Below the pieces are notes generated by a model. The model worked only from the letters and a program-made list of their open reading frames with translations, searched no databases and was not told the origin of the DNA. Of a stretch of DNA of 32,000 nt, positions 30,074 through 32,000 are shown one piece after another. Where the stretch lies: positions 1 through 32,000 of the forward strand of contig JBHLRO010000005.1 of the NCBI GenBank assembly GCA_048882505.1. The letters run 5' to 3'. Within the stretch, counting starts at the first letter, position 1; each line of letters opens with the position of its first letter. Source of the DNA: Candidatus Thorarchaeota archaeon. GTDB lineage: Archaea > Asgardarchaeota > Heimdallarchaeia > Hodarchaeales > Hodarchaeaceae. The position numbers were made by a program, and so were the translations under genes.

Positions 30074-32000
30074 CTATAGCGGTTCCGATTCATCCCAGCT
30101 AAGGAAGTCATCCTTTCCCTTTTTAATCCCCATTGCTTCTCTCACGTACTCCTGTACCCTTCTTTCTTGCTCTTCTGGAGTTAAAAACTCCTCGAGTTTC
30201 AAGATGGAAGATATATTCCGTCTCAAGCGTAGCAATTCCTCGGTTTCTTTTAGAGCAATATCATAGTAGAGTTTCATTTTTTCCTTCTGAGCGATTCTTA
30301 AGCATCGATTTAACCAGAACTCAACCTCATCAAATTGAAAGGTCGCAAGATTGATTTTAGCTCGTAAGAGGTAGACTTGACACATCCCAGCCGAATATTG
30401 ATTCGTTTCAGCCTTGAACTGCCACTCATTCAAACTTGTTAAAAGATTCTTTTTCCCGATTGCTGACGGATTACTCAACCATATTTTAAACTCTGATTCA
30501 ACCAAGGCCCCCTGACAAACAAGCTGATACTCATCAGATAACCCCTCTTCATTCAATGCTGACTTCCATGCCTTCTCTGCAGACCCCCAATTTTTCTGAG
30601 ATTCCGCTAATAATGCTTGTATCATATGATTGAAAGCTTTGACACGAGAATGTTCATATGGGGGCTTAGGAAGGCGGCGGATGAAGTGACTATTTGAGTT
30701 TAGGATTTGGGTCTCCTTATGTATTTGGGCGATCCTAAACAAAGTTTCAGCAACCATATCATCGTTATCCAGAAGATCAAATACATCTAATGCCTTCTCA
30801 TAGCACTGTATAGCTTCGAGGAACTCGCATTGTAGATAGGCAGTATTACCCTTCTCAAGTTCGACCTTTGCATCCGTTTCCGCCTGAACTAAAGCTAAAT
30901 AATCACTAAAACCTAAATTTTCAATTTTAACAGCAGTGGAATAATCTGGCGCCTTCAAACGCAATATAAAATTGGACTCTCGGCGCTTTTTTTGAAAGTA
31001 TATTGCACCTATTATTAGGACGATAGCGCCAACTATTACTGCTGAAGCAAAATGAAAAATACTTAGACTGATAATTGGAAAACTCCAAACGTTGTTAGGG
31101 TCTGTGCCTGCCTTGTATTCATCAAGATTCGAAATCCAATCGCCGTCCAAATCTTCTTGTGCATCGCCTGCATATGTTACGTTGAGACCTACTTGGAATT
31201 CCCAAAGATCTGGCATCCCATCTTTATCCAGATCGTTGGAGGAAAACATTTTATCGATATACTGAAGATTCGGAGCTCCGCTCATCGGATTTAACGAGTT
31301 GCTTTCTACAAAGTTGAGGATCCAATCCCTGACTGGGTATATTCCGAAATCTTGATTGAGATAAATATAGGGAGTATCGTCCGCCGCGATTTCCTCAATT
31401 TCATTATACATTTTCTGTCTTTTGTTTGGATTCTGCTCGACCGCTGCATCCTCGATATAAGGATTCAAGATTTGATTATTATAGGATAGCAGGAAGGCAT
31501 AAATCCCATAGTTTCCGTGTAGGTAAGGTGCAACGAAATTATCGGGATCAGGAAAGTCTGCAATCCATCCACAAAGATATAATGGGTAATTTCGTTGCCA
31601 ATATGAATCACGGAAGTTGCTCCTTTCCATGGGATGGACTAGAACTTCAATATCAACGTTAAGTTGTGCTATGGAATTTGCCAATTGAAGAAATGCTTGA
31701 GCTTGGACTTCAGAGTCAGCAGAGTAAGACAGTTTAATTGTTCCTTTCCAACCAACCAGTTCAAAAAGTGCCTTAGCAGCTTCTATATTGTAATTAGATA
31801 TGTATCCAGCTTCAGAAAGACTTTCATGATGACCTAGCATGTCTTCGGGAATTATACCCTCCATTTGTTTCCCAATTCCTTTAAAGACATTATCAATATA
31901 GACAGAAGCATCAAAAGCCATGGAAAAAGCTTTTCTAAAAAGAATAGAGGTGAACGGGTTTCCCTGACTTGCGGTTTCATTTCCTACTGAATATTTTTTT
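30074..32000 (-). CDS. 5'-truncated single-pass membrane protein: family-5 (OppA/DppA-like) peptide-binding domain + Ca-binding DxDxDG repeats + TM + cytoplasmic TPR-like domain
   Basis: The frame stays open from 31921 to the window edge (KKYSVGNETASQGNPFTSILFRKAFSMAFD). SBP motifs GWIADFPDPDNF and KRQKMYNEIEEIAADDTPYIYL. DLDKDGMPD/DLDGDWISNLDEYKAGTDP repeats; TM then KKRR; helical TPR-like tail. Confidence 0.82.
   Translation of the reverse strand, partial: KKYSVGNETASQGNPFTSILFRKAFSMAFDASVYIDNVFKGIGKQMEGIIPEDMLGHHESLSEAGYISNYNIEAAKALFELVGWKGTIKLSYSADSEVQAQAFLQLANSIAQLNVDIEVLVHPMERSNFRDSYWQRNYPLYLCGWIADFPDPDNFVAPYLHGNYGIYAFLLSYNNQILNPYIEDAAVEQNPNKRQKMYNEIEEIAADDTPYIYLNQDFGIYPVRDWILNFVESNSLNPMSGAPNLQYIDKMFSSNDLDKDGMPDLWEFQVGLNVTYAGDAQEDLDGDWISNLDEYKAGTDPNNVWSFPIISLSIFHFASAVIVGAIVLIIGAIYFQKKRRESNFILRLKAPDYSTAVKIENLGFSDYLALVQAETDAKVELEKGNTAYLQCEFLEAIQCYEKALDVFDLLDNDDMVAETLFRIAQIHKETQILNSNSHFIRRLPKPPYEHSRVKAFNHMIQALLAESQKNWGSAEKAWKSALNEEGLSDEYQLVCQGALVESEFKIWLSNPSAIGKKNLLTSLNEWQFKAETNQYSAGMCQVYLLRAKINLATFQFDEVEFWLNRCLRIAQKEKMKLYYDIALKETEELLRLRRNISSILKLEEFLTPEEQERRVQEYVREAMGIKKGKDDFLSWDESEPL

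Follow-up and report, generated by a model that had tools for sequence, protein, structure and literature searches.

Architecture and fusion origin of a single-pass archaeal membrane protein with a family-5 solute-binding ectodomain and a cytoplasmic TPR tail

A solute-binding domain on a membrane-spanning TPR protein

The window analysed here is a stretch of 32,000 nucleotides from a Candidatus Thorarchaeota archaeon (contig JBHLRO010000005.1 of assembly GCA_048882505.1), and it forms the first 32 kb of the 229-kb contig C5 of its source genome, a metagenome-assembled genome (MAG) of 4.3 Mb in 83 contigs with 3.7% contamination that is referred to as G000. Our subject is a minus-strand open reading frame (ORF) that runs from window position 30074 past the window edge to C5:33226; followed to that position in its own genome, it encodes a protein of 1050 amino acids, named P0001. 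An earlier interpretation made from the letters of the window alone (the sequence-only reading) had described, in order, a solute-binding domain open to the window edge, two DxDxDG repeats, one transmembrane (TM) helix, the residues KKRR and a helical tail of about 300 amino acids, and both order and positions were borne out to within a few bases (Table 1). It had also suggested looking upstream for a signal peptide, and the upstream sequence supplies a signal-like N-terminus at residues 1-39, with a basic start, a hydrophobic stretch at ~11-38 and then ARA/N. P0001, from an Asgard archaeon of Heimdallarchaeia/Hodarchaeales type, is a type-I single-pass membrane protein, in which a cleavable-type signal is followed by an extracellular family-5 solute-binding protein (SBP) domain, a TSP3 stalk, a TM helix and a cytoplasmic TPR domain. 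We hold this architecture and topology, together with the origin by gene fusion described below, with high confidence.

The ectodomain is readily assigned, as SBP_bac_5 (PF00496) matches residues 98-572 (E 4e-67, 227 bits against a cut-off of 32.4) over profile positions 2-364 of 368. The D-x-D-x-D-G motifs of the stalk lie at residues 665-673 and 690-697 (window ~31234-31136). Both motifs are present in P0001, although its match to TSP3_bac (PF18884) scores 12.9 bits against a cut-off of 25; the same profile exceeds its cut-off in the paralogue P0013 (33.6 bits). The stalk aligns at 44-53% to the repeated TSP3 units of a paralogue that carries WD40 repeats above the same tail, and is the most conserved segment among the orthologues of P0001 (72% identity). 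The tail comprises 305 residues after the TM helix, 301 of them beyond KKRR, and contains the peptides EFLEAIQCYEKAL at 801-813 and KNWGSAEKAW at 878-887, both confirmed in the protein. Its Pfam match to TPR_12 reaches 25.9 bits against a cut-off of 30.1, those to TPR_1 and TPR_2 are also below cut-off, and soluble homologues of the tail reach 157 bits for TPR_12. Because its own Pfam matches fall under the curated cut-offs, the TPR and TSP3 labels of P0001 rest on fold and on homology to paralogues. Sub-threshold matches to ATPD_C_fung and MIT were dismissed.

In the full-length AlphaFold model (mean predicted local distance difference test score, pLDDT, 88.6), a bilobed alpha/beta SBP domain (~95) is followed by a short stalk, and the TM helix continues through the membrane into the cytoplasm. 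There, an APDY motif that is 90-100% conserved across all 51 aligned tails forms the loop between this helix and the twelve helices of the TPR domain. Modelled alone, the tail is all-helical with 14 helices (pLDDT 93, pTM 0.86), and its predicted fold is a right-handed superhelix of antiparallel helix pairs whose best structural neighbours are all TPR proteins. These neighbours include TPR_12-type scaffolds, LGN/Pins, TSK, APC subunits, RRNPP peptide receptors and MalT-like sensor TPRs, and the searches scored Foldseek E ~5e-3, VIA Z 12-16 and atlas TM-scores of 0.5-0.6. No specific match emerged from the fold searches with the tail, the Z values lying in the range classed as non-specific for helical repeats, and the matches to the anti-sigma factor DdvA (Z 14.2), APC subunits, TSK and 14-3-3 were set aside as generic helical-repeat similarity. 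Complex prediction for a tail homodimer gave a score of 0.00, which was counted neither for nor against a dimer.

Placement of the TPR part in the cytoplasm, proposed by the sequence-only reading from the positive-inside rule, agrees with a charge bias across the family: among 60 family proteins, the 15 residues flanking the TM helix contain on average 4.2 Lys plus Arg after the helix vs 0.9 before it. In P0001 itself, N-glycosylation sequons (N-x-S/T) number 10 outside vs 1 inside, and cysteines 1 outside vs 5 inside. A PGF-CTERM signal consists of a PGF motif, a hydrophobic helix and a basic extreme C-terminus, and several SBP-only paralogues end in PGFEF...RKRRR. P0001 has no PGF motif and continues for 305 residues after its TM helix, and PGF-CTERM/archaeosortase anchoring does not apply to it.

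P0001 is a genuine conserved protein and no chimera. Full-length open frames with 52-59% identity and no stops are present in seven other genomes of the genus (G001, G003, G013, G015, G017, G018 and G020), and contig-truncated copies in G002 and G016. A contig from a second study, X3, matches window 30991-31517 with zero mismatches, and X4 contigs overlap the same region; the join of SBP domain, stalk and TM helix was thus assembled independently. No RNA data set is listed among those that hold the stretch, the X2-X4 contigs cover parts of it only, and the TM/tail join is bridged solely by the probable source run; this join is conserved in all P0001 orthologues. Among orthologues, identity is 65% in the tail vs 63% in the SBP domain, and the ratio of non-synonymous to synonymous substitution rates (dN/dS) is 0.08-0.13 in the tail vs 0.13-0.24 in the SBP domain. 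Two doubts raised by the sequence-only reading are thereby answered, as the orthologues and independent contigs speak against an assembly chimera, and the identity and dN/dS of the tail against a dispensable appendage. Its central claim, that a family-5 SBP ectodomain and a large cytoplasmic TPR domain share one real, conserved single-pass protein, is upheld by the Pfam matches, the orthologues and the models.

Table 1. Coordinates of P0001 and its parts in the window.
Feature	Residues	Window position	Strand	Basis or remark
P0001 gene, 3' 1927 nt		30074..32000	-	stop codon 30074-30076; residues 1-409 outside the window
Family-5 solute-binding ectodomain, in-window part	410-661	31244..31999	-	whole domain ~40-661
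Fusion junction	659-662	31241..31252	-	homology to stand-alone SBP up to 659, to WD40-TM-TPR protein from 662
Stalk with two TSP3-like Ca-binding repeats	662-716	31079..31243	-	D-x-D-x-D-G motifs
Single TM helix	717-745	30992..31078	-	hydropathy; modelled as continuous helix 723-756
KKRR, stop-transfer/positive-inside signal	746-749	30980..30991	-	direct inspection, family-wide charge bias
APDY juxtamembrane motif	759-762	30941..30952	-	alignment of 51 tails, model
Cytoplasmic TPR superhelix, 12 helices	762-1031	30134..30943	-	AlphaFold2 (AF2) model, fold matches, dN/dS
Disordered C-terminal 15 residues	1036-1050	30077..30121	-	pLDDT <50; 42% identity among orthologues

Origin of the fusion and the family of the tail

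Maximum likelihood trees of the two halves of P0001 lead to the same locus in a sister genome. The SBP domains of all fused proteins group together in the tree of SBP domains (support 95/97), with P0152 as their sister (95/93); P0152 is a stand-alone SBP of G017 whose gene precedes a WD40-tail gene by 62 nt, and one step further out come SBPs from genuine opp operons. The tree of the tails likewise unites the fused proteins (100/100), and places as their sister (97/91) the tail encoded by that same G017 gene downstream of P0152. Since the nearest relatives of both halves adjoin in one sister genome, P0001 is a fusion of an SBP/WD40-tail pair, and G017 retains both the pair and the fusion. The pairwise alignments locate the junction closely: residues 40-659 of P0001 align to residues 33-650 of P0152 at 49% identity, ending where P0152 continues into its own beta-domain, serine/threonine (S/T) linker and anchor, and the counterpart of residues 662-1033 is segment 909-1270 of the WD40-tail protein (44%, E 1e-102), which comprises the last TSP3 unit, the TM helix and the tail. 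Only two residues of P0001 are unaccounted for between the two alignments. Judged from these sequence comparisons, a deletion appears to have joined the SBP gene to the last TSP3 unit, TM helix and tail of its downstream partner, with loss of the SBP anchor and the WD40 propellers. The most parsimonious history is that the pair was duplicated and that a deletion then removed what lay between the SBP domain and the final TSP3 unit encoded by the partner gene. The sequence-only reading had spoken of a binding protein rebuilt as a receptor; the SBP on a receptor-like TM-TPR chain stands, but the event was rather a gene fusion that replaced the WD40 ectodomain on an existing TM-TPR module.

The tail itself belongs to a small family, as an exhaustive HMMER search of 1.84e9 cluster representatives returned 170 relatives, 53 of them at E <= 1e-30. 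P0001 matches the tail-family profile A1 at E 2.6e-130, with APDY at 759-762, and is nested in the family tree; in a single-protein scan its closest named relative, the only one returned, was from a Candidatus Heimdallarchaeota MAG. The relatives fall into two groups. The first consists of long proteins in which the whole tail directly follows a single TM helix, and a typical member has a signal-like N-terminus, then WD40 repeats over ~650 residues, a length that suffices for two propellers, and several TSP3 units. About 18 paralogues carry this combination of two WD40 propellers, TSP3, TM helix and tail, two others have NosD/beta-helix ectodomains and two have ectodomains without a known family. 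Apart from P0001, a single representative has an SBP ectodomain, and it is identical to the G015 orthologue. The second group consists of soluble multi-TPR proteins of 450-750 residues that match tail positions ~65-300 only, some of which continue into HisKA and HATPase_c. When 400 genomes of the phylum were searched with the profile, full-length TM-linked tails turned up in the genus of the window (g1) alone, where they occur in 16 of 21 genomes; G000 has one TM-linked copy and ~15-20 soluble relatives. The TSP3-TM-TPR segment is a reusable module of one genus, normally placed under a double WD40 ectodomain and more rarely under a NosD or unassigned one. Pfam found no methyl-accepting chemotaxis protein (MCP) or histidine-kinase domain in P0001 or in any TM-linked family member. 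In P0001 it found no kinase or cyclase domain of any sort, in agreement with the sequence-only reading, which had seen neither.

Several members of the family have features of their own. In the window, a soluble 511-residue ORF (25874-27406, minus strand) matches the tail profile with its C-terminal ~90 residues; it lies ~2.7 kb from P0001 with an S9 peptidase gene between them, and this proximity may be chance. P0023 (646 residues) carries the tail at 169-464 and then ~180 residues of unassigned nature, whereas all other family members end with the tail. Tandem WD40-tail genes in G016:C57 (L030:1980-5663 and 5908-9615) are each other's closest relatives (100/100), have no adjacent SBP and look like a recent local duplication. 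At the locus of the NosD-tail protein P0076 (L060:6478-7791 and 8001-11384), a stand-alone gene for a 437-residue NosD-domain protein lies upstream on the same strand, and a gene for an Arf/Ras-like small GTPase ~4 kb upstream.

SBP genes beside WD40-TM-TPR genes

The arrangement from which P0001 arose recurs in the genus. Genes around 18 tail-bearing loci were clustered and the recurrent neighbour was identified by Pfam as SBP_bac_5. Among the 16 loci with a readable upstream side, 11 have a family-5 SBP gene adjoining the WD40-tail gene; in ten cases it lies directly upstream in the same orientation, 11-62 nt away, and in one case the two genes diverge. The paired SBPs have their own C-terminal TM helix and basic end, and no opp permease or ATPase was found in the ~20 kb examined around their genes. 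As only ~10-20 of the ~4000 genes of a genome encode family-5 SBPs, the pairing is far beyond chance. The subfamilies of the paired SBPs also track the clades of the tails, c7 SBPs accompanying one clade (100/100) and c1 SBPs other clades, which is what co-evolving partners would give.

Other genes were noted at these loci. Upstream of two WD40-tail genes, the position of the SBP is taken by 'c10' proteins, which are C-terminally anchored and have no Pfam match (L050:11439-13301, minus strand, and L048:2415-3476, plus strand). A homologue in G000:C21 (L056:1493-3280) is 36% identical, though G000 has no WD40-tail gene. In one paralogue lineage, genes for a ParA/MinD-like ATPase (AAA_31) and a 181-residue protein of no known family stand directly beside WD40-tail genes (L018:723-1469, plus strand, with homologues in L019, L021 and L025), and distant ParA-like genes (L048:11169-12017 and L054:15151-15990) lie 4-5 kb from the WD40-tail genes of two others. 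The ParA/MinD-like ATPases and the 181-residue protein are possible cytoplasmic partners or positioning factors.

The SBPs of the genus show further variation. Many of its SBP_bac_5 proteins match the Pfam profile in swapped order, with positions ~145-365 ahead of 2-141, a pattern that suggests a circularly permuted subfamily; examples are found at G000:C5:139689-141566 (L055), G000:C6 (L058), L019:258-2192 and G011:C2:75-88 kb, and the c1 SBPs encoded beside WD40-tail genes belong to this set, as does an array of six tandem copies in G011. Unusually long frames that contain SBP_bac_5, at G017:C267:24603-25454 (ORF of 1213 residues), G017:C170:37078-40350 (1536 residues) and G009:C1:1255718-1256863 (987 residues), may be further SBP fusions of a different kind.

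Sensing, anchoring or transport

We consider P0001 most likely to be a ligand sensor that works by recruiting cytoplasmic partners, a reading to which we give close to an even chance. A receptor-like role gains support because orphan family-5 SBP genes pair with WD40-TM-TPR genes and P0001 was fused from such a pair, and a link to signalling is seen in the homology of its tail to the TPR region that precedes HisKA and HATPase_c in soluble kinases, and in the TPR_12 sensor and scaffold domains among the fold neighbours of the tail. In the two-gene systems, the SBP would be a ligand-binding co-receptor that docks on the WD40 ectodomain, much as BasB and CosB act with their transducers and DppA with Tap, and in P0001 it would be wired straight to the transducer. 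Closure of the SBP domain on its ligand could then move the rigid TM-juxtamembrane helix and its APDY hinge or change how they associate, which in turn would alter cytoplasmic binding by the TPR groove. The likeliest partners of this groove would be members of the expanded soluble TPR and TPR-histidine-kinase family that is homologous to the tail, and the net role would be sensing, not transport. More broadly, and more tentatively, the genus may possess an enzyme-free 'receptor plus adaptor' system, in which exchangeable ectodomains share one TPR tail, and this tail recruits either adaptors of the soluble TPR kind or TPR-histidine kinases. We would be equally cautious in casting its ectodomains as WD40 propellers reading separate SBP co-receptors, as NosD beta-helices and as a fused SBP.

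Several observations weigh against P0001 being a sensor. Many of the loci belong to related genomes and cannot be counted as independent, and the pairing rests on ~4-5 paralogue lineages, not on 11 events; moreover, five of the 16 WD40-tail loci have no adjacent family-5 SBP gene, two of them having an anchored protein of no known family instead. Neither an output enzyme, nor a partner, nor a conserved cytoplasmic neighbour gene was found. Because WD40, NosD and TSP3 are equally typical of adhesion and surface proteins, the family could be structural, and transport is conceivable since SBPs can serve permeases encoded elsewhere. Nor can the ligand class of the SBP domain be assigned. No NCBIfam equivalog cut-off was reached, NikA being the best at 108 vs 393 bits and GsiB, Opp4A and DppA all scoring far below their cut-offs, and the closest solved relatives, of which AibA/HbpA (6ofq) is the second best, bind peptides, glutathione, nickel, haem or AI-2. 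The peptide ligand proposed by the sequence-only reading is not sustained by these comparisons.

The strongest competing explanation is that the TSP3-TM-TPR module serves surface display, tying WD40, NosD and SBP ectodomains to the cytoskeleton, a membrane-domain organiser or a positioning ATPase with no ligand-dependent signalling. We judge this unlikely but worth serious consideration, and the same standing is given to its corollary that P0001 simply serves nutrient capture or adhesion at the cell surface, held there by a firmer anchor and at a position fixed by the module. Its ectodomain kinds are those of adhesins and surface proteins, no enzymatic output is present, TM-anchored SBPs are prominent surface glycoproteins of Asgard archaea (PMC11284389), and a ParA/MinD-like ATPase gene adjoins WD40-tail genes in one lineage, with weaker candidates 4-5 kb away in two. 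However, sister SBPs anchor well by a TM helix and a few basic residues; as these suffice, and the tail has a dN/dS of ~0.1, its 305 residues must do more than anchor. The repeated pairing and co-diversification of SBP and WD40 genes also fit a ligand-relay pair better than independent surface proteins, and the relatives of the tail include histidine kinases.

A transport role, in which P0001 would feed an opp/dpp-type permease encoded elsewhere while the TPR tail tethers or regulates that transporter, for instance through contact with its ATPases, or couples uptake to a cytoplasmic peptidase, is improbable. In its favour, the fused SBP clade is related to SBPs of genuine opp-type operons, the four opp-type permease/ATPase sets of G000 could in principle take an extra SBP, and the gene convergent to P0001 encodes a cytoplasmic S9 oligopeptidase. 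Against it, opp-type permease and ATPase genes are absent from the 19 kb around P0001 and from the orthologue flanks examined, and each of the four G000 clusters already has its own SBP_bac_5 gene, so that the standard ATP-binding cassette (ABC) operon that the sequence-only reading had named as a counter-explanation is not found. P0152, the nearest stand-alone relative, and the c1 and c7 SBPs pair with WD40-TM-TPR genes, not with permeases. On present evidence, P0001 is not a component of an opp-type transporter.

P0001 has as neighbours a convergent gene of the S9 prolyl-oligopeptidase family, small ORFs, a pyruvate kinase gene in divergent orientation and an ABC operon. The peptidase (window 27779-29854, plus strand, 691 residues, Peptidase_S9_N and Peptidase_S9, prolyl-oligopeptidase/oligopeptidase-B type) is separated from P0001 by 220 nt; as its gene is not conserved beside the orthologues, it was rejected as a functional partner, which also tells against coupled uptake. 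An acyltransferase (c2) was rejected because its orientation varies. The operon (L003:7306-11998, minus strand, ~4.3-9 kb past the window edge) is the sole ABC operon nearby and is of sulfate/molybdate/tungstate type by NCBIfam. It encodes a fused double permease, two different ATPases and a PhoU_div/DUF47 protein, shows no binding-protein gene and is syntenic in the genome of the closest orthologue. P0001 was considered as the binding protein of this operon and rejected on the oxyanion type of the operon and on the opposite-strand pyruvate kinase gene between them. The ATPase beside the G001 orthologue is an MsbA-type exporter.

Finally, an assembly chimera or decaying, functionless fusion, suggested by the MAG origin of the genome (83 contigs, 3.7% contamination) and by the fact that the only run spanning the whole gene is probably its own source, has a negligible chance of being correct given the uninterrupted frames in seven other MAGs and two contig-truncated copies, the mismatch-free independent contig across the SBP/stalk/TM join, the strong purifying selection on both halves and the high confidence with which the entire chain is modelled.

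Relation to known systems and significance

SBP-dependent signalling is known but, to our knowledge, its endpoint has in every case been a chemoreceptor, kinase or cyclase, and our literature searches found no description of the P0001 architecture or of the WD40-TM-TPR family. The natriuretic-peptide/ANF-receptor family of eukaryotes combines a bilobed binding-protein fold outside the cell, one TM helix and a signalling module inside; with no sign of homology, the likeness to P0001 is one of analogy only. These receptors have a type I periplasmic binding protein fold, not a cluster-C family-5 SBP, and a kinase-homology and cyclase output. LGN/Pins, the RRNPP regulators (Rap, NprR, PlcR, AimR) and the sensor TPRs of MalT/STAND proteins share the fold class of the P0001 tail and bind peptides or protein segments in a concave groove. 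None of them is carried on a TM helix with an SBP ectodomain, and P0001 in turn has no HTH, phosphatase or NTPase domain.

Among systems with separate binding proteins, the closest in gene order are those of Halobacterium salinarum, where basB and cosB lie directly upstream of their transducer genes (PMC8050422). Both resemble the SBP/WD40-TM-TPR pairs in that an archaeal SBP gene immediately precedes the gene of a membrane transducer. However, the methyl-accepting chemotaxis proteins BasT and CosT combine a dCache-like sensor with an MCP signalling domain, whereas the family described here has a WD40 ectodomain and an enzyme-free TPR tail. Likewise, BasB and CosB are separate proteins of the Peripla_BP_6/OpuAC type, whereas the SBPs here are of family 5 and, in P0001, part of a single chain. 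Family-5 SBPs act as co-receptors in the DppA-Tap, CBP-ChiS and AibA-TlpB systems (PMC8050422), in each of which an SBP_bac_5 protein relays ligand occupancy to a transmembrane receptor. Unlike P0001, these SBPs are soluble proteins that bind non-covalently to the four-helix-bundle or dCache domains of chemoreceptors or kinases, and most of them have a second role in an ABC transporter. In the GlnH-GlnX-PknG system of Actinobacteria, the SBP signal passes via a membrane protein to a TPR scaffold (PMC6069109, PMC8546545), so that, as proposed for P0001, an extracytoplasmic SBP communicates with a cytoplasmic TPR domain by protein-protein contact and not through an enzyme on the membrane protein. 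It differs in being bacterial, in its three separate proteins, in the four TM helices of GlnX and in the location of the TPR on a soluble Ser/Thr kinase, and no sequence relationship of P0001 to it was found in this analysis.

In classical archaeal SBPs of the oligopeptide class, a signal peptidase I (SPase-I) signal and the SBP domain are followed by an S/T linker and a TM helix at the C-terminus (PMC3387779), and an SBP of P. syntrophicum has been described (PMC11284389). An N-terminal signal, a family-5 domain and a C-terminal TM helix are common to these proteins and P0001, and the same build is found in P0152 and in the SBPs of the opp operons. Their chains stop a few basic residues past the TM helix, and their linker is S/T-rich or a beta-domain, whereas P0001 has a TSP3 stalk, a conserved cytoplasmic domain of 305 residues and no transporter genes alongside.

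The architecture of P0001 points to an undescribed, enzyme-free type of transmembrane sensor. The protein can be seen as a variant of SBP-coupled transmembrane signalling, and it could stand for a new class should both the enzyme-free TPR output and the docking of SBPs on WD40 ectodomains be confirmed. Its only cytoplasmic element is a conserved TPR scaffold, and the same scaffold is found under WD40, beta-helix and SBP ectodomains. As a natural fusion, P0001 is a Rosetta stone that links the orphan family-5 SBPs to the WD40-TM-TPR proteins, two families otherwise without functional annotation, and as a single-chain version of a two-gene unit it is simpler to test. If P0001 is a sensor, Asgard archaea, whose sensing is little understood, would gain an enzyme-free, adaptor-recruiting type of receptor, and the marked expansion of TPR and WD40 proteins in these organisms would be explained in part. 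If it is not, the family still defines a new way to tether surface proteins to the cytoplasm. Should the genus indeed possess such a system of receptors and adaptors, this would constitute a new class of prokaryotic transmembrane signalling, found in the closest archaeal relatives of eukaryotes, and the first case of an extracellular WD40 propeller that senses by docking an SBP.

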